Made by a program: the position numbers and the translations under genes
In this document: positions 47,990-63,119 of the stretch, one piece after another
How positions within the stretch are numbered: the first letter of the stretch is position 1
How the letters are laid out: the number at the start of each line of letters is the position of its first letter
Notes under the pieces: model-generated
Database searches by the model: none
Seen by the model: the letters and a program-made list of their open reading frames with translations, nothing else
What the model was told of the DNA's origin: nothing
Assembly (NCBI GenBank): GCA_944389595.1
Contig: CALXMY010000004.1
Location: 29 to 64,028 of the forward strand
Direction of reading: 5' to 3'
Length of the DNA: 64,000 nucleotides
From: an uncultured Alphaproteobacteria bacterium
GTDB lineage: Bacteria; Pseudomonadota; Alphaproteobacteria; Rs-D84

Positions 47990-48399
47990 GTAAAGTCGCT
48001 GGTCGCTATTTGAAAATCGCTTTCTTTGTGTATCTTGTTTCTGTCCTCAAAGTCCTTGATACATTCCAGGAAGAACACAATGTCTGCAAACACGATACTG
48101 ATGTCTGGTGCATCTGGGATTTTTTTCTTGTGGCTATTTATGGTTTGGGGGATGGTGGGGTGACGAAAAAGTCGATATATTTCTTTCTGATCGAGATGGT
48201 GGTGTAAAGGTATTTGACCGCTAGGTCGTTCTTTTTCAGGCCAGTTGCTGTCTAGTGCGATTTCCAGCGCAACTGGCCTAATACAGCAACCTATCTGTCC
48301 TGTTTCTGCCAGCATTTCTATAACGCCGATTCCACAGTGCCATCGCTCGGCCAGCTCTTCCACGTCCAGAAAGACATGCGGAATATCAATCTCTATCAT
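47977..48399 (-). CDS. Hypothetical protein, first gene of the module (start uncertain; longest ORF runs to 48546)
   Basis: MIEIDIPHVFLDVEELAERWHCGIGVIEMLAETGQI... may be HTH-like. It overlaps the nuclease gene by 13 nt. Confidence 0.45.
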   Translation of the reverse strand: MIEIDIPHVFLDVEELAERWHCGIGVIEMLAETGQIGCCIRPVALEIALDSNWPEKERPSGQIPLHHHLDQKEIYRLFRHPTIPQTINSHKKKIPDAPDISIVFADIVFFLECIKDFEDRNKIHKESDFQIATSDFTCII

Positions 48400-48603
48400 C
48401 TTGCCCTCACAATGCATAGAATAGCAAAAAAGGAGTCGCCAAACGGCTAACTCCTTTCCTAATTCATGATTTGATTTTACAACATGTTTTTTGGATTTCA
48501 ACAGGAAAGTAATCTTAGCGAATAGTGTTTTGTATTGATTATTCACAATATTTTATTGATTCTCATCTTTTTTGTTCTAAGATAAAAAGAAAAAGGCCAT
48601 CTT

Positions 48604-49389
48604 ATGCAACAAATGCAAGAATTCAGTATTCATACTCATACAAAAATTGGTGATGGATATGATACTGTAGAAGATATGATATTAGAAGCAAAAAGATCAG
48701 GGTTAAAAACCCTGGGCATTTCCGACCATTTCTGGGCGGTTAGTTACGATCTGCCAAATTATGTTAAAGCCATTAGAGCCGCACAAGATAAGCTACAGTT
48801 TGATGTTCTTATTGGGTTAGAGATTGACAACCCGTCTGACGATCGGCTTGAAATGCTTTATAAAATAAAAAAAGAATATGGTTTTGACTACTTTATAGGT
48901 TCTCTACACGATGTACCTTATAATGGAAAAAAATATTATGTTGGCAGTAAGGAAGACAAAAATATTCTACAAAGCCAGACTTACCAACAGACATATTGGC
49001 AGACCTTGCCAAATCTGGCTAACGATCTATTTGATATCATAGCGCATATGGATCTGATAAAGCTGACAGGTGTAAAAACAGAAGCTTTGTATGAGGCCGA
49101 CATTGATAAGGCCTTAAAAGCCTTTAAGGCGAACAATCAAATTATTGAAATAAATACAAAACATCATCAAATAGAAAATGAGCCATCAGATACAATATTA
49201 GCTAAAGTAGCCAAAGCTGACATTCCTGTTATTTTTAGTAGTGATGCGCACATAAAACACCAACTTATACAGCATTTTGCTGAAGAACAGAGACGTTTAG
49301 CTGAGCCATTGGCTAAGATGCGTTATATTTCTAAGTCTGACGAATTAAGGCAATTTTTGCAATCAAGACACGGTCCTCGTACAAAATAG
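48604..49389 (+). CDS. PHP-domain phosphoesterase (HisJ/histidinol-phosphatase-like family)
   Basis: SIHTHTKIGDG...LGISDHF... shows N-terminal PHP His motifs. 261 aa. Confidence 0.7.
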   Translation: MQQMQEFSIHTHTKIGDGYDTVEDMILEAKRSGLKTLGISDHFWAVSYDLPNYVKAIRAAQDKLQFDVLIGLEIDNPSDDRLEMLYKIKKEYGFDYFIGSLHDVPYNGKKYYVGSKEDKNILQSQTYQQTYWQTLPNLANDLFDIIAHMDLIKLTGVKTEALYEADIDKALKAFKANNQIIEINTKHHQIENEPSDTILAKVAKADIPVIFSSDAHIKHQLIQHFAEEQRRLAEPLAKMRYISKSDELRQFLQSRHGPRTK

Positions 49390-49412
49390 CAAGTAACCGA
49401 AAGGCTAGAAAT

Positions 49413-50132
49413 ATGGGATTTAAAAAAAATATTGTAAATATTTTATGTTCATGCATTCCGTCAAAATCATTTTCTTCCACTGTCAGACAAGCTTTGTTAG
49501 CGACTAAGTTTCTTAATAACGGCAAAAACAATATAGTTGTGATTGTAAAAAAAGACGGTTCAAGAAAGGAACTGAGAAGAAATCTGTTAAATACAAACAT
49601 ACGATTTCTTGGAGATGATAATTATATTGAAATTCATGAACCAATGGCAGAAAACTTTAATTTTTCTTGCAAACTAAATTCTCAAACCACAATTATTATC
49701 GGCGAAAAATTTAACGGTGGTCTTAATATATATTCTGATAGCCCAACACACCCTAACAAAGCAGTATTTGGGAAGGGGATTGTTGTTACAAGGACATTAG
49801 TTATTGATTTTGCCCGTGGAAATGGCAATGTAGAAATTGGTGATAAGTGTTTGTTTTCCTGGGGCGATGAAATTCGTACAGGCGATCATCATGTAATATA
49901 CAAAAAAGGGACAAAAAAAGTATTAAACCCCAATCAAAACGTTAAGCTTGGTAGCCATGTTTGGGTTGGATCGAATGCGTTGATTCTAAAAGGTTGTAAT
50001 ATCGCTGACAATGTGATAATTGGCGCAAATTCGGTTATCACAAAATCTTTTTTGGAACCAAACATAGTCATTGCAGGCAGCCCCGCAAGAATTGTAAGAA
50101 AGGGTGTAGATTGGGGCTATGATGCGCCGTAA
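49413..50132 (+). CDS. Left-handed beta-helix (hexapeptide-repeat) acyl/acetyltransferase
   Basis: VWVGSNALILKGCNIADNVIIGANSVITKSF shows hexapeptide periodicity. Confidence 0.7.
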   Translation: MGFKKNIVNILCSCIPSKSFSSTVRQALLATKFLNNGKNNIVVIVKKDGSRKELRRNLLNTNIRFLGDDNYIEIHEPMAENFNFSCKLNSQTTIIIGEKFNGGLNIYSDSPTHPNKAVFGKGIVVTRTLVIDFARGNGNVEIGDKCLFSWGDEIRTGDHHVIYKKGTKKVLNPNQNVKLGSHVWVGSNALILKGCNIADNVIIGANSVITKSFLEPNIVIAGSPARIVRKGVDWGYDAP

Positions 50133-50143
50133 CCCATATTCGC

Positions 50144-51004
50144 TTATTTTTCTTTACTTATAATCGATTTTACACAATGGTTGTTTGAGTTTGCTTTCGT
50201 TTTCAATTTCTCCAAAAACTGGTAATCCAGCATTTCCTCTGTTGGTTTATCTTGTTCTTTACGCCATTCTTTTCTGTTTACCTGTTTTTGTGAATATATT
50301 TTGCCGGTAGCCCCCAAACAATATTTACAAGCAGATAGAGGACTCTTACATGTAATGTATTTCTCTAACGCAGCTTTTAAGTCTGGTGTATTTAAAACAT
50401 CTATACCATCTGCGAACAAGGTTTTTATCGCCTTTAAAGTGTGTGCTTGGGGACATTTATAAAAGTATCCATCTTCCAAATTGTAGCATTTCCACACATT
50501 AGCAATCAAGCAAGTTTTATATATCTGATCCGTTAAAGCAGAATTCGTAGTCCCTTGTTCAGAATAAGGTTCTCTGAATGCCTCAAAATCTAATACTACT
50601 AGCTTACAAGCACCCTTTGTTAATTCGTGAATATATTCTATATTTATGCCTGTTTGATGATCCGAGACCTCTAAAACATCAACTGAACACAGGATGTCTT
50701 TGTGCTTGTCATTGATTAAAGTTCCATTAGATACAATTGTTATACTGTCGCAAATTTTGCTTTCCCTGACGATATTTATAATTTCCTGTAAGTTTGGTGA
50801 CAAAAACGGTTCCCCACCCAGTAAGCGCACTGTTTCACAATGAAAAACATCACTCAGTCTATTTAAGGACAAACGCAATTTTTCTGTATCAAAATTGTGT
50901 TGTATACAAATTGGTGACAAGTGGCTACACCCCTTGCATGACAGATTACATCTGTTCGTTACATTTATTTCCAATTTTTCTGAAATAATCTTGCTTTTTT
51001 CCAT
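50144..51004 (-). CDS. Radical SAM enzyme with a C-terminal Cys-rich (SPASM/auxiliary-cluster-like) region
   Basis: CNLSCKGC (CxxxCxxC) near the N-terminus, and later C...CKSPLSACKYC. ATG at 51004; the track start 51046 is TTG. Confidence 0.75.
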   Translation of the reverse strand: MEKSKIISEKLEINVTNRCNLSCKGCSHLSPICIQHNFDTEKLRLSLNRLSDVFHCETVRLLGGEPFLSPNLQEIINIVRESKICDSITIVSNGTLINDKHKDILCSVDVLEVSDHQTGINIEYIHELTKGACKLVVLDFEAFREPYSEQGTTNSALTDQIYKTCLIANVWKCYNLEDGYFYKCPQAHTLKAIKTLFADGIDVLNTPDLKAALEKYITCKSPLSACKYCLGATGKIYSQKQVNRKEWRKEQDKPTEEMLDYQFLEKLKTKANSNNHCVKSIISKEK

Positions 51005-51027
51005 ATTTGTTATAAAATCCTTGTTAA

Positions 51028-52509
51028 ATGATTGAAAAGATTTCAAAAAAAATTATAAATCATAATAATGATTATGGCAAGTTAGAAAGCCAATTTTTTT
51101 CTTGCGGATATGGTCAACTAGTAAAAGCCCCCTACGATTCCCTTAAGATCCCTTATTCTGGACAACCTGTAACGATTTCTATTTTGATTCCGTGTCATAA
51201 TTCTGTGAAGACGATCAGGCATTGCATTCAACACATTTCGACAAATTCATACGTTATAAAATATCCATCTGCAGTTGAGGTTATTGTTGTAGATGACGGT
51301 TCAAACGATAAAACATTTGATGTGTTAACCGAGCTTTCCTGTCCTATGAAGGTTTTAGTCATAAAACAAGACCAACGCTATCGTAGCGGTGCATTAAACA
51401 CAGCTCTTTATCATGCATCTAATGATTTTATTTTGACCTGTGATTCTGATATGTGTTTGGACACTTTCTGTATTGAAGAAGCTGCTAAACGACTACAAGT
51501 TCTTGGCGAGAAAGCATTATTTGTCGGCTTCAGAGAAGATATTTCATTAGATAAACTGTCGAAACAAAAAGTACGTAGTCCACATTTTTGGAAAGATAAT
51601 CGTTTTTGTTTTGATTTTAGTCTGATTGACCCTGAAAATATGTTTGCTTTAACAGATGCCTATAAAAGCTTAGGAAAAAACAAGAAAATCTACATTAACA
51701 GCAAAAATGGTATAAATAGAGATGTCTGGACGTTGCCACGTATGGCTTACGGCTGTCTATTTGCTTGTGATCGACAATTTTTTCTGGATATAGGTGGATA
51801 CAATGAAACATTTCGTGGCTGGGGATATGAGGATACTTTGATTGGAGCACTGGCTATATCCATGGGGAAATACATAGTTCCTGTGCCTAGTATGTGTGGA
51901 TTTCATATATCGCATCATGTAGATATGAATACAGTTAGGAACACGCCAAACAAACATCTTTATCAAGAACTCGTTACTGCCCCACAATACATAGTTTTTG
52001 ACTATATTCAACAAAGTAGGAAATTTGTGAAGGATTCTATTGTTTTGTCGCAAAGAGAGTCTGCCCCGTTAAAAAAAATATCCCAGCGCAAATCGGATAA
52101 TTATCATTTTTATCTGGGAGAATATAGACTTATAAAATCGGGGAAACATTATCCAAAAAGTTTATTCTACTCTGGGGCACATAAACTATTGTTAGAGTTG
52201 TTTCCAAACTGCATCTATTCTTGTTTTGTGCATATTGCTATGAAGAACTTTGAAAAGGCCACTTCTTGTTTTGCAAACAATTCCAGCAAAGAAAAAGCTT
52301 ATCTAGATAGCATAGATATTGAAAAGCTATTGACGACAGCCAATTTATGGTATTCCCAGGATAGTGTTTTACTTGCTTTTCAGTATTTTTCCTTGTATGG
52401 TTTATACAAAGGTTTTGGTGCAAAATTAAAACGAATAATTAAACGTTGTATTCAAAAGCTTACAAAAAAAGGTAATAATGAAATTTCATGGTGCACCGGA
52501 ACGTTTTGA
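51028..52509 (+). CDS. Family 2 glycosyltransferase with a roughly 150-aa helical (TPR-like?) C-terminal extension
   Basis: ISILIPCHN...VIVVDDGSNDKT...CDSDM (DxD) is typical GT-A/GT2. Confidence 0.8.
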   Translation: MIEKISKKIINHNNDYGKLESQFFSCGYGQLVKAPYDSLKIPYSGQPVTISILIPCHNSVKTIRHCIQHISTNSYVIKYPSAVEVIVVDDGSNDKTFDVLTELSCPMKVLVIKQDQRYRSGALNTALYHASNDFILTCDSDMCLDTFCIEEAAKRLQVLGEKALFVGFREDISLDKLSKQKVRSPHFWKDNRFCFDFSLIDPENMFALTDAYKSLGKNKKIYINSKNGINRDVWTLPRMAYGCLFACDRQFFLDIGGYNETFRGWGYEDTLIGALAISMGKYIVPVPSMCGFHISHHVDMNTVRNTPNKHLYQELVTAPQYIVFDYIQQSRKFVKDSIVLSQRESAPLKKISQRKSDNYHFYLGEYRLIKSGKHYPKSLFYSGAHKLLLELFPNCIYSCFVHIAMKNFEKATSCFANNSSKEKAYLDSIDIEKLLTTANLWYSQDSVLLAFQYFSLYGLYKGFGAKLKRIIKRCIQKLTKKGNNEISWCTGTF

Positions 52510-52963
52510 AGCAGTTGCTGATCTGGTAGGTAGACATTTTGATACGAATAAAATCAAGTACGTAGCAGACGTTGCTGGGGGGCAAGGAATGCTCAGCAGA
52601 ATTCTGCGTAAAAGATATAACTGTGAATGCGATGTTATAGATCCTAGAGAATACGGCATTGTAGGTGTAAACAGACGTGTTGAATGTTATGTTCCAGACA
52701 TGGCCACTTTTTATGATTTGATTATTGGTTTACACCCTGATCAGGCTTTGCGCCCAGTAGTAGAATCTTCATTATATAGACCAACCATAGTTGTCCCTTG
52801 TTGTAATTACTGGTCTGCAGAAAAGATGGGTGCAAAGTTGATGCGCCAAAGTATTGAAGAATGGTACAAAGCACACAATATCAGATATGTTGTAGAAGAA
52901 TTAAAAATTGATACACCACATAGGTTCGCCTTAATAACTTTTGGTCCAAAAATAAAAGGATAA
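52478..52963 (+). CDS. Small SAM-dependent methyltransferase-like protein (161 aa) with an HPDQA...VPCC signature resembling Trm44-type RNA 2'-O-methyltransferases
   Basis: VADVAGGQGML (motif I-like) and LIIGLHPDQA...TIVVPCCNYW. The family assignment is from memory of the motif only. Confidence 0.45.
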   Translation: MKFHGAPERFEAVADLVGRHFDTNKIKYVADVAGGQGMLSRILRKRYNCECDVIDPREYGIVGVNRRVECYVPDMATFYDLIIGLHPDQALRPVVESSLYRPTIVVPCCNYWSAEKMGAKLMRQSIEEWYKAHNIRYVVEELKIDTPHRFALITFGPKIKG

Positions 52964-52967
52964 AGAT

Positions 52968-53924
52968 ATGGAAAAAACGATCTTAATATTTAGAATCAAA
53001 ACATCCAGATTGAAAGCCCGTAGTTTGGCTCTTGAGGAAGTTAAATCTTTCTTATCAGATGTTGAAAATGTAGAAGTGGTCATTGGTGGGCCTTTATCCA
53101 CAGAAAAAGGGATTATTGCCGCATATCTGCCAAAAAATTTTGATACCGATGTTCTTGCACCTGACTTTTCTAGACTTGGATACATTCAACAAGTTGACCA
53201 AATGGTTCAAGAACAAAGAGAATCGAAAAATACAATTAAATGGAAAGGTGCTTTTTATTCTTTGGAAACTATTTATGAAGAAGACAAAGAAGAAGTAAGA
53301 AATCAGGCACCAGATAAAAGGCGTTTTTTATTACCAGATCCTACGGGTACTTTACGTTATGTTAACGGTTATCGTGGCGATGGAACAGAAACGGGGAAAC
53401 GCGCCTTGCCTGTTGAAGACTGCAAGTTTATGCTTAATTTATCTAAGATCAAACGTGGCCAAAAAGTCTTGGATCCGTTTGCTGGTGCTGGTGGTATAGT
53501 CTTTGCAGCAGTCCAGGCTGGGTTGGATGTATATAGTTCCGACATAGATCCAAAGATGCAGTATGGCTTAAGGGATTTTGGATCTAAACACCATGTAGCA
53601 GATATTCAAAAACTACCATTTGACAATAATTTCTTTGATTCTGTAGTTACCGAAGCACCATTTGATACAAATGTTACTGGAAATGTCGCAGAGGGGCTGG
53701 CCGAAATGCAACGTGTTATTAAGCCATCTGGTTATATCATATTGATGGTGGCTGATCATCAGGTAGAGCAAATCCGCAAGAAGGCTGCTACTTTGGGATT
53801 AGAAACATATGTTGATCAACCCCTGGATCGTAAAGGAACAGCAGTTCATATTTTCGGCCTAAAAAAAAAGCAACTGAATCAAAATGAGCTTATGAGAGCT
53901 TTCGCAGATACTTACGGGAGATAA
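52968..53924 (+). CDS. Trm11/RlmL (UPF0020)-like SAM-dependent methyltransferase with an N-terminal extra domain and a degenerate motif IV (EAPF)
   Basis: ...CKFMLNLSKIKRGQKVLDPFAGAGGIVFAA... and ...VVTEAPFD... Confidence 0.5.
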   Translation: MEKTILIFRIKTSRLKARSLALEEVKSFLSDVENVEVVIGGPLSTEKGIIAAYLPKNFDTDVLAPDFSRLGYIQQVDQMVQEQRESKNTIKWKGAFYSLETIYEEDKEEVRNQAPDKRRFLLPDPTGTLRYVNGYRGDGTETGKRALPVEDCKFMLNLSKIKRGQKVLDPFAGAGGIVFAAVQAGLDVYSSDIDPKMQYGLRDFGSKHHVADIQKLPFDNNFFDSVVTEAPFDTNVTGNVAEGLAEMQRVIKPSGYIILMVADHQVEQIRKKAATLGLETYVDQPLDRKGTAVHIFGLKKKQLNQNELMRAFADTYGR

Positions 53925-53928
53925 GTTC

Positions 53929-55074
53929 ATGAAAAACATTCTTGTATACCTATATTACCCATTTGTTTCACAACATTTATCTGGTGGTGTACAAATAATA
54001 ATGCGCAAGGTTTTAGAGGAGTTGTCCGGGCATGGGTTCTGTTTTCGTGTTTTATGTCCCAAAATTAAAAATTCTGCTGACGTATTAAACATTAGGGGTG
54101 TGGAGGTATTTCCTGTTCTTAACGACTTTCAAAACAATCGAAATTACGCAGAATTGTCTGAAAACTTTTCTATAATTAACAAACATATTGGTTGGGCAGA
54201 CGTTGTCTGGACAATAGATAGAAATGTACCGATAAAAACGGATAAACCAATAATTCTGTCCTTGAATGCACATTGGTATGCTACGAATCAAAATGCACTA
54301 TTTTCCATGAACTGGGACAAGGTTATTGCATTGAGTGATTATTCTAAGGACATATTAGAAAAAACTATTAAACCTGCCTGCTGGCACGGAAACTCTGTAC
54401 CAACAATTGAAGGAATATCGCCAGTTCTTAGCGAAATATTGTATAAACGACAAGATTGTTCTTGTTTGAGTAAGTATTTTGACTACAACCCCGAAAAAAA
54501 ATATATCCTGTTTCCGCACAGACCAGATAAGGGAAAAGGACACAAAAGAGCGATAGACGTTCTTAAATCTTTATGCGCAAAAGACTCTAACTATGTGTTG
54601 TTAATTCCTGGGATTGCCACTCTCTCAGAAAAGCTAAAAAGTATTGAAGCGACCATTATTGAAGATGCCTTAACTTATGCACAAGATATAGGTGTACGTG
54701 ACAACGTAATTTTGCACGATTGGATTCAATATGACGATTTGCCTTATTTCTATTCTGCAGGGACAGCTACTCTTATTGCCTCTGATCTAGAAGAAACATT
54801 TGGCATGACTCTAACAGATTCTATATTGTGCGGTTGTCCAGTTGTTAGCACCGGTTCTGGGGCCTTAAGGTTCACTGTTCCTGACGGTTTAGGACACAAG
54901 ATAGTAGATTATAATAAACCAGACGATGTAGCGAACACTATAATATCTGGCATTCCTGGCATTGCTGATGGAATCATATACATAAAATCTACATACAATA
55001 CTGATAAAATTATAAGCCAATATAAAAATTTGTTTGAAACGGCACAAAAAACGGATGGAGTTTATTATGAATAA
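53929..55074 (+). CDS. GT-B fold glycosyltransferase (family 4/1-like)
   Basis: The C-terminal ...DLEETFGMTLTDSILCGCPVV... fits the EX7E region. 381 aa. Confidence 0.75.
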   Translation: MKNILVYLYYPFVSQHLSGGVQIIMRKVLEELSGHGFCFRVLCPKIKNSADVLNIRGVEVFPVLNDFQNNRNYAELSENFSIINKHIGWADVVWTIDRNVPIKTDKPIILSLNAHWYATNQNALFSMNWDKVIALSDYSKDILEKTIKPACWHGNSVPTIEGISPVLSEILYKRQDCSCLSKYFDYNPEKKYILFPHRPDKGKGHKRAIDVLKSLCAKDSNYVLLIPGIATLSEKLKSIEATIIEDALTYAQDIGVRDNVILHDWIQYDDLPYFYSAGTATLIASDLEETFGMTLTDSILCGCPVVSTGSGALRFTVPDGLGHKIVDYNKPDDVANTIISGIPGIADGIIYIKSTYNTDKIISQYKNLFETAQKTDGVYYE

Positions 55075-56998
55075 AAAACCGAAAGTTAATATCATTACAG
55101 TGACATTGAATCGCCCATCTTTAGTTCAAGCCTGTAAAAGTGTCGATGAACAAACATACAAAAATTGGCATCATTTTGTTCTTGGAGATGGTGTATTACC
55201 GGACGAACTACGTCATCCAAATCGCAGTGTTTTTGGCTTTTCTCATGCATATGGGAAAGAAGAGCCCGGCTTAAACATGCCTGACGGGACTCCCAATCCT
55301 TTGCAACGCTGGGCCTTAAACAACCTGAAATTGGATGAATACTTTTGTTTTTTAGACGACGACAATATATACGATAAAAATTTCCTAAAAAAAATGGTCG
55401 CTACCATTGAAAGTAATCCGGATATTGGTTGTGTATTGTGTGGCGTAAAAGATCAAAGACATTTCCAAAATATCACAGGAGAACCTATTCTGGGAAGATG
55501 TGATAACAGCGGTGTTATCTTTCGCACAAAACTGGCAACGAAAATTGAATTTCCACACGCATCGTTGGACAAGAACGTTGTTCAGGATGTTGAATTCATT
55601 CAAAAGGTTTCAAAGAAATTTGGTTGGAGACAATTAAGTGAAACCCTAGTGACATTTGGGTCTGCTCCAAATGTGCCTACCGTACGTGGAGGAATAAAAT
55701 TGTTGTCTTCGTGGGAATTACCACTGTTCGCATTTAAAAAATTAAAAGAGGGAAAAATATCAGATGCCATTCAAGATTTGCTAACTTCTCTTCAAATAGA
55801 CCCATTGGACGGTTATGCCCTTTGGAGATTAGCAGAAGCATATGCTGTTTCTGGCAACATAAAAAAATCAAAAGAGTGTTTACGGAAGTGGATTCATCTT
55901 GCGGAAGAATCACATTGTTTCTCTCATCATTTTATTACTTTTTGTTGCGGCCTATCCTACAAGGCTTTGAATCTTCCAACAAAAAATCTGTTTAAAAAGG
56001 CTATTGAGACAATTGATACTTCTACCATATCAGAACAACTTAGTTGTGAGTGGTATAGGATTGTTTCCAATGAAAAAAGAGATATTAAATTTTATTCTCA
56101 GATATTGCAACAAATAGAATCCGACTCTACAAAAATTCAGAACGCACTATGGAAAGCTCGTGTTGCTGCAAAACTGTTCCCACGGCAACAAAACATACAG
56201 GCTGCTTATGAATTGCTGCACAATTATTATTACAACAAGGAAATCACTGTCTTAACAATTACTCGTGGTCGCCCTAAATTATTAGCTCGTGCAATTGATT
56301 CTGTTAAAGCACAAGAAAATGCAAGAAATGTTAACCATTTGATAATTATTGACGATTGCAAAGAAACACTTAATTTCCTGGAAACAAATTATCATACTGA
56401 TGATAGCATTCAGTGGGAATTTGTAAAACGAACTTCCAGGGAAGTCAACGGTCCGGCACGAATTGCCCGGTTACGTAACAAAGGCATCAATAGTGTTCAC
56501 ACCAAATATTTGGCAATGTTGGACGATGATAATGAATATACCCCAGATCATCTTAAGACACTGTTAAACCTGGCAAAGACTGAAAATTTGCTGGCTGTTC
56601 ATTCTTGGAGACGCTTGTTCACATTTGATGGGAAACCTTTTACCGATAACTTTTGGCCATGGGAAACGGATAAAACATCCCAAAAAGCCAAATATAAGGA
56701 TTATGTGAAACGTGGTATTGTAGATCAAGATTCCAATATTCTTCGTGATGGTTTTGATAATAATACGGTAGATACCAGTGCATGGTTGCTAGAAACCAAA
56801 ACTATGCAAAGCTTACTATTTCCAGAAAAATACTCCGCTGATGACATAGCAAAGAATATTGTTGAGGACAAAAAGTTTTATCAGATAATATCTTCTAGAC
56901 CAAATATTAAAATCGGCACAACAAAAAAGTGTACCTTAAAATACTACCTTGGTGGCTATTCAACTGATTTTAATAAGTCATTAAAACGCACAAAATAG
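55067..56998 (+). CDS. Dual-domain glycosyltransferase: two GT2-like domains joined by a TPR-like helical linker
   Basis: ATG at 55067 overlaps the upstream stop (ATGAATAA). Domain 1: NIITVTLNRP...FLDDDN. Domain 2: TVLTITRGRP...LIIIDDC...MLDDDNEY. Linker: ...ALWRLAEAYAVSGNIKKSKECLRKWIHLAE... Confidence 0.7.
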   Translation: MNKKPKVNIITVTLNRPSLVQACKSVDEQTYKNWHHFVLGDGVLPDELRHPNRSVFGFSHAYGKEEPGLNMPDGTPNPLQRWALNNLKLDEYFCFLDDDNIYDKNFLKKMVATIESNPDIGCVLCGVKDQRHFQNITGEPILGRCDNSGVIFRTKLATKIEFPHASLDKNVVQDVEFIQKVSKKFGWRQLSETLVTFGSAPNVPTVRGGIKLLSSWELPLFAFKKLKEGKISDAIQDLLTSLQIDPLDGYALWRLAEAYAVSGNIKKSKECLRKWIHLAEESHCFSHHFITFCCGLSYKALNLPTKNLFKKAIETIDTSTISEQLSCEWYRIVSNEKRDIKFYSQILQQIESDSTKIQNALWKARVAAKLFPRQQNIQAAYELLHNYYYNKEITVLTITRGRPKLLARAIDSVKAQENARNVNHLIIIDDCKETLNFLETNYHTDDSIQWEFVKRTSREVNGPARIARLRNKGINSVHTKYLAMLDDDNEYTPDHLKTLLNLAKTENLLAVHSWRRLFTFDGKPFTDNFWPWETDKTSQKAKYKDYVKRGIVDQDSNILRDGFDNNTVDTSAWLLETKTMQSLLFPEKYSADDIAKNIVEDKKFYQIISSRPNIKIGTTKKCTLKYYLGGYSTDFNKSLKRTK

Positions 56999-57000
56999 AA

Positions 57001-57948
57001 TTAAATAACGGTTTTAAAGTAATCTATTGTGCTTTTTAACCCCTCAGACAAACTCGTTGTGGGGTTCCATTTTAGTTTTGCCTTAGCAATTGTGATATCC
57101 GGTTTTCTTCTGTTTGGATCATCCGCATCACGTAATGAGTGTTTAGATACTATCTTTGAGGTGGTTTTCGTCATACGAACAACCTTTTCAGCCAATTTCT
57201 TTATAGTAAGTTCTTCTGGGTTCCCTATGTTTATCGGTCCTGTTACACTCTTTGAAGAATTCATCAGTTTTATAAGTCCGCTTATCAAATCATCAACATA
57301 GCAAAAACTACGAGTCTGCTCGCCAGAACCATATATAACAATATCTTTATTGGTAAGTGCCTGCACAATAAAGTTTGAAATGACTCTGCCATCATTTTTA
57401 TTCATCTTTGGACCATAAGCATTAAAAATTCGTGCAATTTTTATTTTGGCATTTTTGTGTCTGTAATAATCAAACATCAATGTTTCTGCGCATCTTTTTC
57501 CCTCATCATAACACGCTCTGTCACCGATGGGATTAACATTACCCCAATATGTTTCCTTTTGGGGATGCTGTAATGGATCGCCGTATATTTCGGAAGTAGA
57601 AGCTTGTAGGATGGTTGCATCGTTTTTTATTGCCAACTCTAATACATTTATCATACCGATCGTACATGTCTTTGTAGTCAGAATACTATGCGACCCCTTA
57701 TAAGCAGCAGGGCTTGCGGGACATGCAAGATTATAAATTTGATCAATATGAGCTCGAATCTTGATTGGTTCAATTATGTCGTGTAAAACAAACCTAAAAT
57801 TAGGGTGTCGCTTTAATTCTTTTATGTTTTCTACACTACCGGTATAGTTATTGTCCAAACAGATAACCTTATTACCTTGTCGTAATAATCTTTCACACAG
57901 ATTACTGCCTATAAATCCCGTACCACCAGTAACTAAAATTGTTTTCAT
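57001..57948 (-). CDS. UDP-glucuronate decarboxylase (UDP-xylose synthase)-like SDR
   Basis: [17 protein letters not shown]... and [12 protein letters not shown] (the YDEGKR.AE signature of UXS/ArnA-decarboxylase-type enzymes). Confidence 0.75.
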
Positions 57949-57958
57949 AAAGCCCCCA

Positions 57959-59092
57959 TCATATATTTATTAAAGTTCTTAAGTTGATTAAACTTTCTTC
58001 TTCTTGTTTTTGTTTCTTCTTCAATAATCCCTTACAAATTCGTTTGTAATTTCTTCGACTTAGTTTTATGGCACTTATAACAGCATTTTCTAATTCATCG
58101 TTTTTATATAACACTGCATTTTCTTCGGAAAAACCATGTTTAGCCGCAAAAAAATCGTTCACTATTACGGGTTTAACAAAGCCCACGGATAGTCCAAAGG
58201 AACCACTCGTCTTGTTCGTTGTATAATCAGATATGTGTTGTTTATTTTTCTCTGACAGCAAGGCTAGAATAAAATCAGATTTTTTTACAATCTCATATAA
58301 TTGAGCATTCGTCACATCACCCCAAATAGAGACGTTATTTGAATATTTTACAAATTCTGGTGACAATTCTTCTTGTCCAACACGCCCGACAATATTCAGA
58401 TGAAAATCTGTTACACCGGATTTGTTTAGTTTTTCTAATATGCGCAATAGAAGACTCATGTCCCTACATTTAGCATCAAATCTGCCAGCGACAAGAAAAT
58501 GTGTTTGTTTGTTCTTCTTTGATATTTTCGTGTTTGAGTACAAAGTCGGTGATATATAAGGTACGGAAATGTTTTTACTATAAGGAAATTTGTGTAATGC
58601 TACAGCGTGTGATAGAAATCCTTTTCTTTCTTTTGGTAATGTTAAAGTCTTGAAACGTTCCCATTGATGCTCAATGAAAAAGATATTATTTTTTGTGAAC
58701 TTGGAACAAAAGTTGTCTTTGAACAACTTTGGATAATACACCCCTGTAAAATCGTCTGTTGATGTCAAGAAAATATATTTATAACGCCGCATATTGCATC
58801 TAAATAGCTCATCGCTTAACGCTGCCGGCAAAAACAGATGAAAAATTCTAACCCTATGTTCATTTAACAATACGTTTTTCAATAAATCATTTGTGTAATT
58901 CTTATCACTAACAACAACATCAACATGGAAACCCATTTTTAAGAAATAATTTACAACAGGTGGAATAACCTCGCCATGCCAGTTGGTTGGTTCTATAACC
59001 AAAACGGATTTATCAGGTACATCTGATTCAATCATTGGCATTATGCCATGATATCGTAAAAGTTTATCTCTTATAGTCAACAAATCTGTCAT
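57959..59092 (-). CDS. Putative glycosyltransferase (GT-B-like C-terminal half); otherwise hypothetical
   Basis: ...[26 protein letters not shown]...HLNIVGRVG... resembles the GT1/GT4 C-domain. The support is weak. Confidence 0.4.
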
Positions 59093-59265
59093 TTGGCTGT
59101 CTTTTGTTTAATGTTTGAACTAGATTTTGAGACCATCCTTATAACAGACGGTTCTTCAGATAGTCTAAAATCCAAAATCCCTTTTTGACTTATATTCTTC
59201 TTTATAAAATGTCTTATGTCTTTTAATGTTGTTCCGTCAGCGGTCATTATAAATGTAACATTCAT
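59089..59265 (-). CDS. Small hypothetical protein (58 aa) coupled by ATGA overlaps to both neighbours
   Basis: Hand translation gives [58 protein letters not shown]. tcat overlaps lie at 59262-59265 and 59089-59092. Confidence 0.45.
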   Translation of the reverse strand: MNVTFIMTADGTTLKDIRHFIKKNISQKGILDFRLSEEPSVIRMVSKSSSNIKQKTAK

Positions 59266-60686
59266 AGCACTTCCTTTAATGTAACAGATGCAAAATCTTT
59301 TACATTCATCTGAAACCGATTGTATTTTGTTGGGACTTTTAATTTATTTTTTGAGAATATAGCTATCGGTTTAAATGGATTCCTTTCCAATAATACATCT
59401 AATTCTTGTGCGGAACGAATTGTATGCATCTGAATACCAAGAGCAGATCGTTCTACCAACGCAGCTTTCCTATCATCATATTTTTTATTCTTGTTGATAT
59501 ATAAGACAATTGTTGGCTTATCATTCCCATATCCAGGTGCCATGTCTATAAATACATTGTCTGGCAATTTTGTACCAGGTGTCAACATTAACAATGGTAT
59601 GCCTGATTTGAATGATGCAAAATTTACAATGTGCTGAGCAATTTGTGACGAATGATTATCTAGCTTTCTTTTTACTCTTGCTGTTTTAATTATTTGTTTA
59701 AGAAGATTACACAATGTGTCATCATTATAATCTGTTGGTAAAGAATGCACATTGGTATATCTATTTTGCAATTGCTTTATCCATTCTTCTTGTTGTTCCA
59801 AATATGAAACGCTTGGGATCAACAACAAATCCGCATTCCCCGATAAAGATTCAAATACAGCATTATACCCAGGCCTTAGAACACATACCTTGGATATGGC
59901 AAACAAAGCAGGTAAATTTGGTTCAAATTCTACGATCCTAACATTTTTTATATTGCTCGGCACAACAATCTCATCTTTATAGTTACTCCCTTTGACTATA
60001 ACTATCATACATTGCTTTAACTTAGGTGCAATAGAGATGGCAGCAGAAAACAATTTTTTACAAAACCCCTCTCCAAAATGTTCTCCGCCAGCACCTGCAT
60101 TAAAGACGATCAGGTTATCATTATGCGGATATCGGTTTGCAACGTCCCTAATTTCCTGTTTGGTTGGCTTATAGAATACAGGCCCCATAAATTTGACTTT
60201 TTCTTCATACTCCAACCACAAACGCAATTTTGGGTTAGCAACGTCATTAAATAATTCTTGCTTAGATTGCAGAAAAACTACCTTATCAAAGCGATCAAAC
60301 TTTTTATTGTCTAGCATCGACACCAATGCATTTTCTTCTATTCTGCGCATAATAAGAACTTTGTGCCGATACTTAAGGGACGGCACTTGTTCATACACAG
60401 GATCTGGGTCTGTGTCCTCTATAACAATATCTGGACTAACCTCTGTTACTATTGTATCTATCAGTTGTTTTAGAAATATTTCTGATAAATTGGATGGTAA
60501 TCTGTGCATAAACGGTATATTAAAAACCACAAATCCCTTGTTTTCAAACAAATCTGTAGATTTGGCTTGGGTTATAAAAAAAACATGGTGTCCCATTTTA
60601 CGCAAATCTTCCGCAATAACCAACGCCCTACGAAAATGCCCAAACCCTATGCCGTTTTTTAATAAAAATAATATTTTGTGTTGCAT
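59262..60686 (-). CDS. GT-B fold glycosyltransferase, MurG/PseG(SpsG)-like N-terminus
   Basis: ATG at 60686. MQHKILFLLKNGIGFGHFRRALVIAEDLRKMGH... matches the G-x-G-x-GH..R motif of that group. Confidence 0.6.
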   Translation of the reverse strand: MQHKILFLLKNGIGFGHFRRALVIAEDLRKMGHHVFFITQAKSTDLFENKGFVVFNIPFMHRLPSNLSEIFLKQLIDTIVTEVSPDIVIEDTDPDPVYEQVPSLKYRHKVLIMRRIEENALVSMLDNKKFDRFDKVVFLQSKQELFNDVANPKLRLWLEYEEKVKFMGPVFYKPTKQEIRDVANRYPHNDNLIVFNAGAGGEHFGEGFCKKLFSAAISIAPKLKQCMIVIVKGSNYKDEIVVPSNIKNVRIVEFEPNLPALFAISKVCVLRPGYNAVFESLSGNADLLLIPSVSYLEQQEEWIKQLQNRYTNVHSLPTDYNDDTLCNLLKQIIKTARVKRKLDNHSSQIAQHIVNFASFKSGIPLLMLTPGTKLPDNVFIDMAPGYGNDKPTIVLYINKNKKYDDRKAALVERSALGIQMHTIRSAQELDVLLERNPFKPIAIFSKNKLKVPTKYNRFQMNVKDFASVTLKEVL

Positions 60687-60714
60687 ATTCAATATCTTGT
60701 TGTATATATATAGT

Positions 60715-61410
60715 ATGACACAATGGACTGATTTTCAAGCCAAATTATCGGAATATTTTCATTCTGGACAACAGATTTCTTTCTGGTGGCGGGAGGATGA
60801 CGTTTCTTATGATTGTGCTAATCTGCGCATAGTGCTTGATGTCCTTTCAAAATATAACGTCCCTGTGTTATGTGGTGCTATCCCAAAATTATTAACACTA
60901 GACATGATTCTGACACTTAAGCAATATACGAACGTTTCTGTATGTCAGCATGGTTTATTTCATCAGAACAACTACACACAAGGCCATAAGTGCGAATTCG
61001 ATACAAATGAGTCATTGGGGCAATTGCTTATAGGGCGAGATTTCCTACGAACTACATTTGCATCTCAGTTTATAAATGTGTATATTCCCCCTTGGAACAA
61101 TATCAGCAAATCTTTTAAGGATTTTTTGCTAGCAAACGGATATTGTGCTGTATCTGCCTGGAATTATTCACCAGATAGAAAAAGACCTTATAATTTTGAC
61201 GTAGATCTGATAGATTGGTCAAAGTCTGAATCTTTTGAAGACGAAAGTTTCGTAATTAGACAGATATTGCAATGCTTTGAACGTAATGACTTCCATATCG
61301 GTATAGTTAATCACCACAGGACTATTAGTAAAAAGGGTGTAAAATTCATAGAAAAGTTACTTGCGGAATTTTCCAAATATCCAAACATTTCTTGGTTCTT
61401 ACCGTTTTAG
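60715..61410 (+). CDS. CE4 (NodB)-like polysaccharide deacetylase family protein
   Basis: ATG at 60715. The track ORF from 60193 is antisense overlap with the neighbouring GT gene. Motifs: WWREDDV, CQHGLFH, YIPPWN. Confidence 0.5.
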   Translation: MTQWTDFQAKLSEYFHSGQQISFWWREDDVSYDCANLRIVLDVLSKYNVPVLCGAIPKLLTLDMILTLKQYTNVSVCQHGLFHQNNYTQGHKCEFDTNESLGQLLIGRDFLRTTFASQFINVYIPPWNNISKSFKDFLLANGYCAVSAWNYSPDRKRPYNFDVDLIDWSKSESFEDESFVIRQILQCFERNDFHIGIVNHHRTISKKGVKFIEKLLAEFSKYPNISWFLPF

Positions 61411-62150
61411 TCATTTCGTGTCACAACACCTATAGTCCCATGGATATAAAATTTATATCTTGTGTTTCTCTCTATAAACATTTGTGCACCCTTTTGAACT
61501 TCTTTTCCCCATTTACCACATACATCATGCAAAACCACACAACCGTTAGAATTTAACATTTCTGTTGTTAGTTTTAGGTTTGACTCTACTGATTCCGCAT
61601 AATGATCCGCATCAATAAATATTAAATCAAATTTTCTTTTTTGTTCTAATACAGTGGATATTACAGGAATTTTTAGCATATCTGGATTATTGGGCAAATG
61701 GTAGGCTATGGTATTATCATCGGGTATTTTTGAAAAAAACGCTTTTATTTTTGTGATTCTATCACACAGACTAAAATTCTTGCTTAAGGCTTGAAAATAG
61801 TAATCTGTACTTTCATTTAATTCTACTCCATATGTTTTGGCATCGCTCTTTATAGAAAGACATGGATCTACACAATAAATTTTCGATTTTTTAAATAATG
61901 TTAATAAAACTATTGCGCTAACACCAACAAAACTACCTATCTCTAATACAGATGAAATATCCTTATCCTTGGCAATATCATAAATAGACTTTATATCATC
62001 TGGAATTAAACACACACTATATAGCAGCTCTTTAGGAATCCCCATCTGTCGCAGTATTTTAAATGAGGCCTCTCTGATTTCTAATGCTTTTGTTAAATAC
62101 ATATAAAATCCGTTTTTAATAAAACGTAATATATTTTTTTGTATTGTCAA
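61407..62150 (-). CDS. Class I SAM-dependent (O-)methyltransferase (CmcI/Methyltransf_24-like)
   Basis: VLEIGSFVGVSAI (motif I) and LIFIDADHYAESV. The start is TTG 62150 or ATG 62102. Confidence 0.65.
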   Translation of the reverse strand: MTIQKNILRFIKNGFYMYLTKALEIREASFKILRQMGIPKELLYSVCLIPDDIKSIYDIAKDKDISSVLEIGSFVGVSAIVLLTLFKKSKIYCVDPCLSIKSDAKTYGVELNESTDYYFQALSKNFSLCDRITKIKAFFSKIPDDNTIAYHLPNNPDMLKIPVISTVLEQKRKFDLIFIDADHYAESVESNLKLTTEMLNSNGCVVLHDVCGKWGKEVQKGAQMFIERNTRYKFYIHGTIGVVTRND

Positions 62151-62163
62151 GAAGTTAGTAGCA

Positions 62164-62913
62164 CTAGACTGTTTTTCTTCGAAACTTTTTATTTAGTTTG
62201 ACTACTTTTTTCAATAAATATCCTAAGGATTCTCGCTTGTTTTGAACATAAAATGCATGAACATCTTTTGGAAAACATTTGCCCCCATAGCCAAATGAGC
62301 CGTCTGGTCCTGGCACCATAGTATGAACTGGACTTATATATTTGCTTAGCACAACTCCTTTTCTAACTTTTTGAAAATCGACATTAAATTTTGAACAACA
62401 TTCATATACTGCATTAAAGTACGTTACTTTTAATGCCCCAAAAACATTATGTGCATACTTTGCAATTTCTGCTTCTGTACTGGACATTTGTATAAATGGT
62501 TTATTTGGAAATATTGTTTTTAATAAATTTTTTCGTCCTGTAAATACCATGTGCTGTTGATTAAAATCTTTGCGAGCCGTCCTTTCTGTTAAAAATTCTG
62601 GCATAAAATAAATATCTTTGTGAAACTTTGCCCTCAGTTTGTTTGTTGTTCCCGGCAAAAGTGTCGTTCTAATAAAAATAGGTTTATTTGGCAGCTCAAC
62701 AATTATTTTTTCTAAATTTTTTAGATTTTGTTTGCCGTTTCTTTCTGTAGGGATGTGTATTTGTATAAAATAAACATCGCAATCATCAATATTGTCCAAA
62801 TAGCCTTTTGCTGGATCTTGAATTTTTACAATATGTCTAGTATTAGCTCGTAGCCAGTCTTTCAGCACAGTCCCGATTACACCACAGCCAATAATTCCGA
62901 TTTTCTTACTCAT
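62164..62913 (-). CDS. Short UDP-glucose/GDP-mannose dehydrogenase family protein (NAD-binding plus central domain with catalytic Cys), lacking the usual C-terminal UDP-binding domain
   Basis: ATG at 62913. MSKKIGIIGCGVIG... (Rossmann) and ...GYGGKCFPKD... (catalytic Cys box). Only 249 aa. Confidence 0.6.
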   Translation of the reverse strand: MSKKIGIIGCGVIGTVLKDWLRANTRHIVKIQDPAKGYLDNIDDCDVYFIQIHIPTERNGKQNLKNLEKIIVELPNKPIFIRTTLLPGTTNKLRAKFHKDIYFMPEFLTERTARKDFNQQHMVFTGRKNLLKTIFPNKPFIQMSSTEAEIAKYAHNVFGALKVTYFNAVYECCSKFNVDFQKVRKGVVLSKYISPVHTMVPGPDGSFGYGGKCFPKDVHAFYVQNKRESLGYLLKKVVKLNKKFRRKTV

Positions 62914-63119
62914 AGTAATCTGTTTCCAGTTTTGTTTTATTGTGCCATGATTGTTTAATGTTCGCAATATTTATTCTGTATTTTGCCTAAATCAGCATTT
63001 CTTCCTTGAAATCTAGCGTTATTGTTGTGCCAACATTTTCTATTTTGATTACAGCATTGCTTTCCACGTTCCGGCAGAAGAATTTCACGGTCAGCTCTCT
63101 CAAGTCCTTGCTTGTCTTT

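Follow-up and report, generated by a model that had tools for sequence, protein, structure and literature searches.

What is made by a compact cluster of glycosyltransferase genes that carries no recognisable membrane machinery, and on what acceptor is it made? The question is raised by a locus in a 64,000-nucleotide stretch of DNA, analysed here as a whole and called the window, from an uncultured gut alphaproteobacterium of 'Candidatus Enterousia', a genus whose genomes are mostly smaller than 1 Mb (PMC12306168). Fifteen intact open reading frames (ORFs; g01 to g15, strand order ++-+++++----+--) are packed between window positions 48604 and 62967, and identical gene calls are obtained on metagenome contigs 98-100% identical to this stretch. 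Comparison with versions at 59-88% protein identity indicates purifying selection on all 15. An earlier note on this DNA had described a 15-gene cluster with at least four clear glycosyltransferases (GTs) and one weaker candidate, and searches of the 15 proteins against Pfam, NCBIfam and the PDB recovered nearly every item that it listed, the clear GTs being g04 (GT2), g07 (GT4), g08 (dual GT2) and g12 (GT-B) and the weak one g10. We propose, tentatively and with rather less than even confidence, that this cassette is a mobile cluster for a soluble metabolite resembling an aminoglycoside or oligosaccharide, with RNA methylation serving as self-protection. Most likely, the product is a soluble oligosaccharide or pseudo-oligosaccharide built and tailored in the cytoplasm, unlike that of a surface-polysaccharide locus.

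The first line of evidence is the absence of membrane proteins. Kyte-Doolittle hydropathy (19-residue segments scoring at least 1.6), a crude measure rather than a trained predictor, found no hydrophobic segment in the 15 proteins other than the S-adenosylmethionine (SAM)-binding motif-I strand of g14, and no ORF with three or more such segments either between 46.8 and 64 kb of the window or in an extension of it. The extension is provided by a contig (L002; the loci compared with the window carry the prefix L) that is 100% identical to window positions 47001-64000 and continues for 3.9 kb past the window end. No phosphoglycosyl transferase of the WbaP/WecA type was detected among the 15 proteins by Pfam, NCBIfam and hydropathy, or in the scanned ±8-10 kb flanks of homologous clusters, and no Wzx, Wzy, WaaL or ABC exporter in the cluster, in the island that carries it or in the 3.9 kb past the window end. 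The earlier note had claimed that the locus has no polytopic, export or priming protein and is not a classical O-antigen or capsule locus, and with priming transferase, Wzx/Wzy/WaaL and ABC exporter all missing both claims stand. The same absence repeats in divergent versions from several bacterial phyla and in one archaeal metagenome-assembled genome (MAG), and a ±10 kb scan of the flanks met no polytopic membrane protein in most of the versions so covered. Paenibacillus is an exception, with two ABC exporters following its copy; the Elusimicrobia copy (L040) has an ABC-2 pair annotated beside it, and a distant MFS transporter lies near L007. Since the machinery is missing both here and in divergent versions, all-soluble cytoplasmic assembly on a soluble acceptor is the natural reading.

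The second line of evidence comes from g03 (50144-51004, minus strand), a twitch radical SAM enzyme (radical SAM E 4e-9) that belongs to the core of the cassette. Sequence searches match it to PDB entry 7WZV with E 8e-43 over residues 9-283 of its 286, and its AlphaFold2 (AF2) model (predicted local distance difference test, pLDDT, 91.7) aligns with the same entry in Foldseek over 296 columns (E 2e-32, template modelling (TM) score 0.93, root-mean-square deviation 2.0 Å). The other radical SAM structures reach a TM score of 0.47 at most. The entry title reported by Foldseek names SpeY, a twitch radical SAM dehydrogenase of spectinomycin biosynthesis. Invariant cysteines in g03 comprise C19, C23 and C26 (CX3CX2C) together with C165, C184, C226 and C229, and both sequence and model predict a full-length SpeY-family member that includes the C-terminal auxiliary-cluster (twitch) region. 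Enzymes of the SpeY family oxidise or epimerise a sugar carbon once the aminoglycoside has been assembled, its members HygY and NeoN being epimerases that act on sugar carbons of the completed compounds. Literature searches on 7WZV, on SpeY, or on THUMP together with glycosyltransferase clusters returned nothing usable.

Two of the GTs point in the same direction. The GT4 enzyme g07 (53929-55074, plus strand; Glycos_transf_1 E 2e-16), another core member, finds its nearest relatives in NCBIfam and the PDB among MshA, sucrose-phosphate synthase, TreT and BshA, all as weak matches, which would place it nearest to GT4 enzymes with small soluble acceptors. In the window it is paired with g13 (60715-61410, plus strand), a 231-aa putative DUF2334/CE4-like deacetylase whose own match is weak (DUF2334 E 3e-3), which carries EDD and HGLFH motifs and whose homologues match DUF2334 and Polysacc_deac_1. 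Most sister clusters pair the GT4 with PIG-L, and a GT4 plus an N-deacetylase of one kind or the other (PIG-L or DUF2334) is found in nearly all versions. This combination is the opening move of the 2-deoxystreptamine aminoglycoside, mycothiol and bacillithiol pathways. The 474-aa GT-B protein g12 (59262-60686, minus strand), whose own match is weak (GT28_C E 1.5e-3), belongs to a rare GT28/GT1-like family: 5.8e9 proteins yielded just 24 clusters, and 1.84e9 proteins yielded 119 representatives at E<=1e-30. The GT-B motifs NGIGxGH, EDT, GAGG and PGYN..E are invariant in the family alignment. Searched with the family profile, the PDB gives a processive diacylglycerol glucosyltransferase as the best match (E 2e-4), and next come GT1 UGTs that act on small molecules. 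Taken as the diagnostic enzymes of the cassette, the SpeY-type g03, g07 and the GT28/GT1-like g12 point to small-molecule glycoside chemistry.

The third line of evidence lies in other taxa. Tracing homologues of g12 uncovered the cassette's gene set again in gut Bacilli that have not been cultured, in Paenibacillus lautus, in a Muribaculaceae MAG and on metagenome contigs of no assigned taxon, and homologues of g03 led on to relatives in an acidobacterial MAG (L038), the Elusimicrobia MAG (L040), a 420-kb metagenome contig and a Promethearchaeota MAG (L039), although individual MAG assignments may be wrong. This synteny search, which the earlier note had put forward as a check, reveals a cassette that recurs across phyla with membrane machinery almost never nearby. 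Its recurrent core consists of g03, g04, the GT4, the GT2-TPR (tetratricopeptide repeat) half of g08 and a second GT2, with g06 present in all versions but L038; the usual extras are g12, a small ORF, the deacetylase, an MT24 methyltransferase, UDP-xylose synthase (UXS) and a full-length UDP-glucose dehydrogenase (UGDH). Sister clusters have four to eight cassette genes in common with the window, in different subsets, and several bring in further enzymes. An AroB-like sugar-phosphate cyclase (243 bits against the aroB model, whose cutoff of 305 it does not reach; TIGR04425 E 2e-53) and a DegT aminotransferase are added in L038, three DegT aminotransferases, a carbamoyltransferase, an AP_endonuc_2 protein and APH fragments in L041, and a class-III aminotransferase alongside the two ABC exporters in Paenibacillus. 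Such additions are typical of aminoglycoside-like secondary metabolism. A TupA ATP-grasp protein is also among the genes of the cassette versions, and several sister clusters have extra SPASM radical SAM enzymes, one of them with a PqqD gene.

Some of these versions deserve separate mention. The distant cassette relative in L041, which encodes two UPF0020 methyltransferases as well, is flanked (722-2603) by two fragments of the APH (aminoglycoside-phosphotransferase) family and by a gene for queuosine salvage (Q_salvage). The reduced form in the Asgard archaeal MAG L039 comprises a g03-like radical SAM gene, GT2-TPR, GT2-7C-TPR, a split UPF0020 gene and DegT, and its core genes adjoin Ras/Roc small-GTPase genes in the MAG as binned. 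In the gut-Bacilli/Muribaculaceae version, the gene set is enlarged by two radical SAM genes and one for a GT-D-like protein. On the 1.46-Mb chromosome of a Bacilli MAG (L034, CP091726.1), g03, g04, g06, g07, g08 and g09 are represented by short ORF fragments, reflecting either a decaying cassette or frameshift errors in a long-read assembly. Lone g12 homologues occur in actinomycetes, Streptomyces, Kitasatospora, Micromonospora, Salinispora and others among them (L024-L033, L036, L037); in L026 (4613-14398), for example, the homologue stands with a GT4, a PHP protein, a sulfotransferase, a methyltransferase, a PLP decarboxylase and a class-I lysyl-tRNA synthetase. The idea that these actinomycete loci are the same cluster was rejected, as only g12 is in common and the GT4/PHP/sulfotransferase context is a different one.

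A fourth line of evidence concerns RNA methylation. The 318-aa protein g06 (52968-53924, plus strand) is a Trm11-like THUMP-type methyltransferase that matches Methyltransf_11, UPF0020 and N6_N4 as well as TIGR01177 (E 4e-18). Foldseek aligns its AF2 model (pLDDT 91.4) over the full length of archaeal Trm11 (6ZXW, 6ZXV and 5E71; TM 0.66-0.67, E 1e-15 to 1e-18), with TrmN and Trm14 as the next matches, and a profile search of the PDB likewise finds Trm11 (E 3e-11). As the match spans both the N-terminal ferredoxin-like/THUMP half and the class-I methyltransferase domain, the model predicts the complete fold of a THUMP-type tRNA methyltransferase, at 14-15% identity to Trm11. The SAM motif DPFAGxGG is present and the family has an invariant block, GYRGDGTExGRRALPVED. 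Motif IV reads TE[AV]PF, not DPPY or (D/N)PP(Y/F), with E229, P231 and F232 invariant or nearly so. In 23 of 26 long metagenome loci, members of the g06 family stand alone among unrelated neighbours with no cassette, which argues that the cassette recruited an enzyme of RNA-methyltransferase type; for the same reason, we rejected the possibility that g06 is specific to the cassette. One family member (P0230, 33% identity) is recorded on a 23-Mb contig, which suggests a eukaryotic assembly with bacterial contamination or a transferred gene.

Upstream of g06, and together with it the slowest evolving of the cassette proteins, is g05 (52478-52963, plus strand), a protein of 161 aa that resembles a minimal class-I methyltransferase, matches Methyltransf_32 weakly and below cutoff (E 2e-4) and has conserved DVAGGQG, GLHPD and PCC motifs. 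It is the most conserved of all, with 90% identity to the L011/L016 versions as against 59-88% for the others. The earlier note had counted two RNA-methyltransferase-like proteins: g06, with its Trm11-like fold, qualifies, whereas no such fold could be demonstrated for g05. The NCBIfam model for EmtA also matches the cassette, at E 6e-6 and far below cutoff. In the gut-Bacilli/Muribaculaceae version, an S4+FtsJ TlyA-like rRNA 2'-O-methyltransferase gene lies inside the operon, between the Trm11-like gene and g12 (L022 9202-9990; also L017 and L019-L021). The rRNA methyltransferases AviRa and AviRb are the standard self-resistance of oligosaccharide-antibiotic producers, EmtA is an acquired resistance enzyme and TlyA modifies the decoding centre (PMC13602947).

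The sugar supply can be defined in part. The product of g09 (57001-57948, minus strand), an extended short-chain dehydrogenase/reductase (SDR), matches human UXS1 (4GLL, 2B69) with E 2e-99 over residues 2-312 and conserves YDEGK within an ACYDEGKR block, with the catalytic Tyr-x3-Lys pair, and is a genuine UDP-glucuronate decarboxylase (UDP-xylose synthase). At the end of the cassette, g15 (62164-62967, minus strand) encodes a 267-aa short Ugd-like protein with NAD-binding and central domains (N-terminal, partial, E 7e-7; central E 3e-18) and the catalytic cysteine in GGKCFPKD; it ends about 20 aa past this motif, and with no PF03720 match the C-terminal UDP-binding domain is wholly missing. 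The g15 gene of L011 is intact and constrained (66% identity, pN 0.21 versus pS 0.78), L016 keeps a 36-aa remnant and other cassette versions have one or two full-length UGDH genes. From its sequence, g15 may act on a substrate other than a nucleotide sugar. Both the UXS-like decarboxylase and the short dehydrogenase had been named in the earlier note and are confirmed here. A tunicamycin-like pathway (SDR, radical SAM enzyme, methyltransferase, GT4 and PIG-L) was also considered, and rejected because g09 is a true UXS and g03 is SpeY-like.

The status of the cassette as the cargo of a tRNA-Asn island had not been recognised in the first reading of this DNA. G+C content falls from about 0.43 to about 0.35 from 48 kb to the window end. 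The left island junction (46764-46853, plus strand) consists of the upstream region and the 5' half of a tRNA-Asn(GTT) gene, broken in the anticodon loop, and forms a 92-nt direct repeat (91% identity) with the region of an intact tRNA-Asn gene that lies about 370-470 nt past the window end (L002 3447-3522). It is followed by the left-end backbone (46854-47317), which contains a bidirectional terminator-like hairpin (47105-47122) and is 99% identical in three contigs with other cargo (L133, L135, L137). Two further cargo genes on the minus strand precede the cassette. One, encoding a 226-aa DUF2779-like protein (47309-47989; Pfam DUF2779 E 1e-5), is confined to the window-type context (L002, L006, L136), and the other, encoding a 189-aa protein with no Pfam match (47977-48546), accompanies the cassette in L002, L005 and L006. 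On the right, the backbone (62939-63584) is 93-99% identical in L133, L135 and L137. Here are found the remnant of a tyrosine integrase (63120-63386, minus strand), of which there is only an 88-aa arm-binding domain (Arm-DNA-bind_3 E 4e-8), and an AlpA/excisionase-like HTH_17 ORF (63450-63620, minus strand; E 3e-4, below cutoff). No functional integrase was found in the window island beyond this fragment; full-length integrases of 406-408 aa occupy the same place beside tRNA-Asn in L005 and L011, and HTH_17 genes adjoin the integrase in L005, L011, L133, L135 and L137.

Related strains differ in what they carry at this site. Three contigs (L132, L134, L138) match the window exactly up to position 46853 and then diverge, their cargo being an EcoRI-like methylase with an SNase nuclease, a Phage_CRI gene, or Cas9 with T5orf172. 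A fourth, with a SWI2/SNF2 helicase as cargo (L139), leaves the window sequence earlier, near 46733, and L133, L135 and L137 keep both island ends around 2-3 kb of acetyltransferase/NUDIX/GreA cargo. In L132-L139, FabI is 100% identical to that of the window, and contigs with identical FabI and different cargo are probably from the same species. The hotspot lies between fabI and tRNA-Asn (window 46698-47317; L132-L139). As both island ends are common to strains with other cargo, the block from 47318 to 62938, comprising the cassette and the two extra genes, is swappable low-GC cargo in a decayed tRNA-Asn island at a strain-variable hotspot. A 13-kb core (50048-63030; g03 to g15, without the PHP and LbH genes) recurs at 99% identity in other backbones that also hold a primase-like gene, a reverse transcriptase, HipA or OLD-TOPRIM, and elsewhere the cassette has integrases, serine recombinases, reverse transcriptase, HipA, OLD-TOPRIM, SIR2 and AbiEii as neighbours. 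The hotspot context is defence-like, though the cassette is not assigned to any known defence system; matches to the PADLOC models were confined to generic radical SAM (pVip) and methyltransferase (mad2, MTase_II) domains, and the GTs gave none. A phage origin was likewise rejected, with PHROGs giving only generic GT and methyltransferase matches, and IMG/VR contained no g12 relative and just generic methyltransferase matches to g06.

These observations can be assembled into a provisional pathway. UDP-glucuronate would be converted to UDP-xylose by g09, and g15 may supply a uronate or oxidise a bound sugar. An N-acetylhexosamine (HexNAc) would be moved by g07 onto a small, possibly phosphorylated acceptor, the product N-deacetylated by g13 (by PIG-L in sister clusters) and the phosphate taken off by the PHP protein g01. 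Chain extension by the GT2 enzymes with g12 and g10 would follow, after which g03 would epimerise or oxidise one residue, g14 and g05 would add methyl groups and g02 an acetyl group. Most likely, g06 would methylate the host RNA (rRNA or tRNA) that the product would hit, as a means of self-protection, with the TlyA-like enzyme as its protective counterpart in the gut-Bacilli version. The cassette might then act as a toxin-plus-immunity or chemical-defence module, which would fit its spread on mobile elements and account for its carriage on an island in a defence-type hotspot.

A number of points weigh against this proposal. By Pfam, the window has no cyclitol- or aglycone-forming enzyme, aminotransferase or exporter, leaving acceptor and exit route unaccounted for, and among the versions a sugar-phosphate cyclase of the DOIS/EEVS type, not found in the window by the same searches, is represented only by the AroB-like protein of L038. 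Five to six GT domains exceed typical aminoglycoside needs, and the TPR-bearing GT2s, universal in the core, would be unusual in a small-molecule pathway, being more typical of protein- or polymer-directed transferases. We know of no product from any carrier, the cultured P. lautus included. A self-resistance role for g06 is something we purely infer; the protein might instead N-methylate a sugar, and its motif IV is atypical. APH fragments, the TlyA-like gene and exporters occur in sister clusters only, the window having its candidate Trm11-fold methyltransferase, and the extra SPASM enzymes and the PqqD of sister clusters would suit a peptide substrate. It would also be odd for a symbiont of less than 1 Mb to keep an antibiotic cluster with no exporter. 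Lastly, the GTs resemble characterised enzymes only weakly, which makes the sugar identities given above guesses.

The alternatives turn largely on the remaining GTs. Five or six GT domains look competent (g04, g07, two in g08, g12 and perhaps g10). The core protein g04 (51028-52509, plus strand; 493 aa) has a GT2 (GT-A) domain (E 4e-21) and a Glyco_transf_7C match (E 7e-8), DDGS and DSD motifs and a helical C-terminal region of ~200 aa. Chondroitin and heparosan polymerases are nearest to it, its best PDB match being chondroitin polymerase K4CP (E 1e-10); it matches glucosyl-3-phosphoglycerate synthase weakly, and its GT2 core also gives a weak match (E 2e-4) to the flagellin GT GmaR. The core protein g08 (55055-56998, plus strand; 647 aa) is a fusion of two GT2 domains (GT2 E 5e-24 over two stretches) through a TPR-like linker and retains both DDD (DXD) motifs. 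In other taxa it is split into a GT2-TPR protein of ~395 aa and a GT2 of ~262 aa with the PIG-L deacetylase standing between them. The TPR-like regions that the earlier note reported in two GTs survive in part. In support, g08 has weak matches to TPR_19 (E 3e-4) and to consensus-TPR PDB chains (E 4e-4), and homologues give unmarked TPR_16/TPR_19 matches as well as further ones marked as faint; in the window proteins, however, the calls fall below threshold, and g04 itself has no TPR match, its homologues matching TPR mostly as 'faint' but without that mark in L041. The 377-aa product of g10 (57959-59092, minus strand) is a putative GT-B, assigned weakly on a Glycos_transf_1 match of E 5e-3 only. 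Its slot is elsewhere taken by a Glyco_trans_1_2 protein that aligns poorly with it, and a CgeB-type Glyco_trans_1_2 identity was rejected, given 16-23% identity to the same-slot proteins.

A role for the cassette in making an envelope glycoconjugate is unlikely but carries appreciable weight. Here, the soluble GTs would rely on host machinery to extend a membrane-anchored acceptor at the inner face, be it diacylglycerol (through g12) or a host-primed Und-PP-GlcNAc or lipid A-core, and a housekeeping exporter (MsbA-like, TagGH-like or Wzx) would carry the product out. The diacylglycerol glucosyltransferase relationship of g12 fits this, as do the polymerase relatives of g04 and the two-GT layout of g08, which resembles that of bifunctional polymerases. 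UGDH, UXS, LbH proteins, deacetylases and TupA ATP-grasp enzymes are frequent in surface-glycan loci, the transporters noted above adjoin the Paenibacillus and Elusimicrobia relatives or, for the MFS protein, lie near L007, and the host core genome encodes MurJ and an MsbA-like ABC exporter. However, the latter is split in this strain, the versions examined contain no priming transferase, flippase, polymerase, chain-length regulator or ligase, and the cassette spans diderm, monoderm and archaeal hosts with incompatible envelopes. Nor would an envelope function explain the SpeY-type enzyme and the Trm11-fold protein that are found in nearly every version.

Rather less probable is the cytoplasmic glycosylation of a protein or ribosomal peptide recognised by TPR-bearing GT2s, the option that the earlier note had preferred. 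All of the enzymes are soluble, TPR-like regions are present in g08 and in homologues of g04, and the weak GmaR match, the GT-D-like protein of the gut-Bacilli version and the extra SPASM enzymes and PqqD of distant relatives are all consistent with it, as is the small ORF that usually adjoins g12. In the window this ORF is g11 (59089-59265, minus strand; 58 aa), translationally coupled between g12 and g10; five versions have an ORF of 50-61 aa after the g12 homologue, and Paenibacillus has one of 61 aa beside the methyltransferase instead. The copies occupy the same position with 17-36% identity, yet an alignment of six of them shows no conserved core, no Ser/Thr/Cys core, no cysteine and variable tails. 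We therefore rejected g11 as the precursor of a ribosomally synthesised and post-translationally modified peptide, or as an acceptor, for want of a core or leader, and treat it as a small structural partner. Against a protein target more generally, none of the contexts shows a flagellin, pilin, adhesin or S-layer gene, g03 falls with a sugar-modifying rather than a peptide-modifying radical SAM enzyme, and the TPR matches in the window stay below the Pfam thresholds. It is also unlikely that Alphaproteobacteria, Bacillota, Bacteroidota, Acidobacteria and an archaeon would share a single protein target. With no conserved acceptor gene and no GT match to a known protein glycosyltransferase beyond the generic GT2 core, the earlier preference for a protein acceptor is not upheld.

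We consider it improbable that the product is a methylated glycan or glycoside retained in the cytoplasm, on the model of the mycobacterial polymethylated polysaccharides or the 'synthase + phosphatase' pathways for compatible solutes and thiols. The combination of GTs with a PHP phosphatase, several methyltransferases and an LbH acetyltransferase, and no exporter, would suit such a product. The phosphatase is g01 (48604-49389, plus strand), of the PHP family by Pfam (E 4e-26) and HisJ-like by an NCBIfam family model that it matches below cutoff (E 4e-21), the acetyltransferase g02 (49413-50132, plus strand), an LbH (hexapeptide) protein of WbbJ/Maa type (Hexapep E 1e-10; WbbJ model E 6e-16, below cutoff), and g14 (61407-62102, minus strand) a Methyltransf_24 (TylF-related) methyltransferase (E 3e-13) whose counterpart in the L038 cluster matches TylF and Methyltransf_24. 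The nearest relatives of g07 (sucrose-phosphate synthase, TreT, MshA and BshA) and the weak match of g04 to glucosyl-3-phosphoglycerate synthase fit too, and in Streptomyces a PHP gene again lies beside a GT4 and a g12 homologue. However, g01 and g02 are accessory and in some versions dispensable: both are missing from L001, L003 and L004, and g01 is reduced to a remnant in L016, with two copies in L011. A housekeeping product would not be expected on strain-variable islands and in defence-type hotspots, and there is no role in this scheme for a Trm11-fold or TlyA-like RNA methyltransferase.

Slightly more doubtful still is RNA-directed glycosylation, in which g06 (with the TlyA-like enzyme in Bacilli) would dock tRNA or rRNA while the TPR-GT2, GT4 and GT-B enzymes, the SpeY-type enzyme and the methyl- and acetyltransferases assemble a tailored glycan on one of its nucleosides. 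In favour, the Trm11 architecture of g06 is complete and extends to the N-terminal half that binds RNA, we know of no characterised THUMP protein that acts on anything other than RNA, g06 is in all but one of the examined versions and among the most conserved members, a TlyA-like S4+FtsJ enzyme lies inside one version, a Q_salvage gene flanks L041 and RNA is the sole macromolecular acceptor that every host lineage, the archaeal one too, has in common. Against it, multi-sugar RNA glycans have no known precedent in prokaryotes, most g06-family genes stand alone with no GT and so do a basic job independent of the cassette, TPR-GT2, GT4 and SpeY-type enzymes have no known nucleic-acid substrates, and translation would probably suffer if tRNA or rRNA bore a bulky glycan. 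Were it true, it would amount to a mobile, cross-domain 'glycoRNA' pathway in prokaryotes.

Should the favoured reading, a soluble aminoglycoside- or oligosaccharide-like metabolite, prove right, the cassette would represent an undescribed family of saccharide natural-product clusters whose nearest chemistry is that of the aminoglycoside antibiotics, mobile between very different gut microbes, including some with genomes of less than 1 Mb. New compounds that target the ribosome or RNA might be sought in it, as might new resistance genes of the RNA-methyltransferase type in circulation among gut microbiomes, and it would exemplify an island whose cargo serves chemical warfare or chemical defence against phage. 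Irrespective of the acceptor, the locus is a glycan assembly line without membrane machinery, in a compact unit of 13-16 kb, and its core of GT2-TPR, GT4, SpeY-like radical SAM and Trm11-like proteins is found again, complete or partial, in hosts that range from Alphaproteobacteria to the Asgard archaeal MAG.

Several further features of the window were recorded. Divergent start codons are 23 bp (51004/51028) and 28 bp (60686/60715) apart, and convergent genes end 2 bp apart at 56998/57001 and overlap by 4 bp at 61407/61410, packing so tight that promoters must sit within neighbouring coding sequence. The best sigma-70-like match (11/12) lies within g04, upstream of g03 (51080-51052, minus strand), and a scan for promoters and terminators gave counts not above those in shuffled sequence. 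Rfam returned no RNA family between 44 and 64 kb. Outside the island, the core-genome MsbA-like exporter (39014-40826, minus strand) is split into ABC_membrane (411 aa) and ABC_tran (212 aa) ORFs, and is a single 590-aa gene in L135 and L137; the split could be a frameshift, a pseudogene or a strain variant. A very long ORF (1-4258, minus strand; >1400 aa, with several hydrophobic segments) extends past the window start.

How does the cassette compare with known systems? Like O-antigen and capsule loci, it has UXS, a Ugd-like protein, several GT2 and GT4 enzymes, an O-acetyltransferase, methyltransferases and low GC, but it has no chain-length regulator or outer-membrane export protein in it or nearby, and holds a radical SAM enzyme and an RNA-methyltransferase fold. 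With the FlmG, GmaR, OGT-type and SunS-type systems it shares soluble GTs, here with candidate helical TPR-like regions, cytoplasmic action and methyl- or acetyltransferases; unlike these, there is no linked acceptor gene, no specific homology beyond the GT2 core and a host range too broad for one target. The g06 protein resembles archaeal and eukaryotic Trm11, the tRNA m2G10 methyltransferase, over the full length of the fold, but is bacterial, embedded in a glycosylation operon and has TE[AV]PF in place of DPPY at motif IV.

The closest parallels are with antibiotic clusters. Those for the orthosomycins avilamycin and everninomicin also have many GTs, sugar methyltransferases and a UDP-glucuronate decarboxylase, AviE2 being a UXS and AviX12 a radical SAM epimerase. 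The presence there of a radical SAM epimerase acting on an oligosaccharide together with two self-resistance rRNA methyltransferases would be another likeness. The cassette differs in having, by Pfam, no dTDP-deoxysugar genes, orthoester-forming oxygenases, polyketide synthase or halogenase. From aminoglycoside clusters it differs in that the window is without cyclase, aminotransferase and exporter, has five to six GT domains, two of them with putative TPR-like regions, and encodes a Trm11/THUMP-type methyltransferase rather than a known 16S rRNA resistance methylase, and in that the hosts are gut bacteria with reduced genomes, not actinomycetes. The spectinomycin (spe) cluster has SpeY, that for hygromycin B has HygY, and neomycin and butirosin clusters pair the GT4 enzymes NeoD/BtrM with the PIG-L enzymes NeoL/BtrD. 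The cassette matches these in its SpeY-family enzyme (SpeY alone being compared here), its pairing of a GT4 with a putative N-deacetylase, its soluble enzymes, its candidate RNA-methyltransferase genes and its patchy, horizontally spread distribution, and the sister clusters extend the likeness to aminotransferases, a sugar-phosphate cyclase, a carbamoyltransferase and APH-like fragments.

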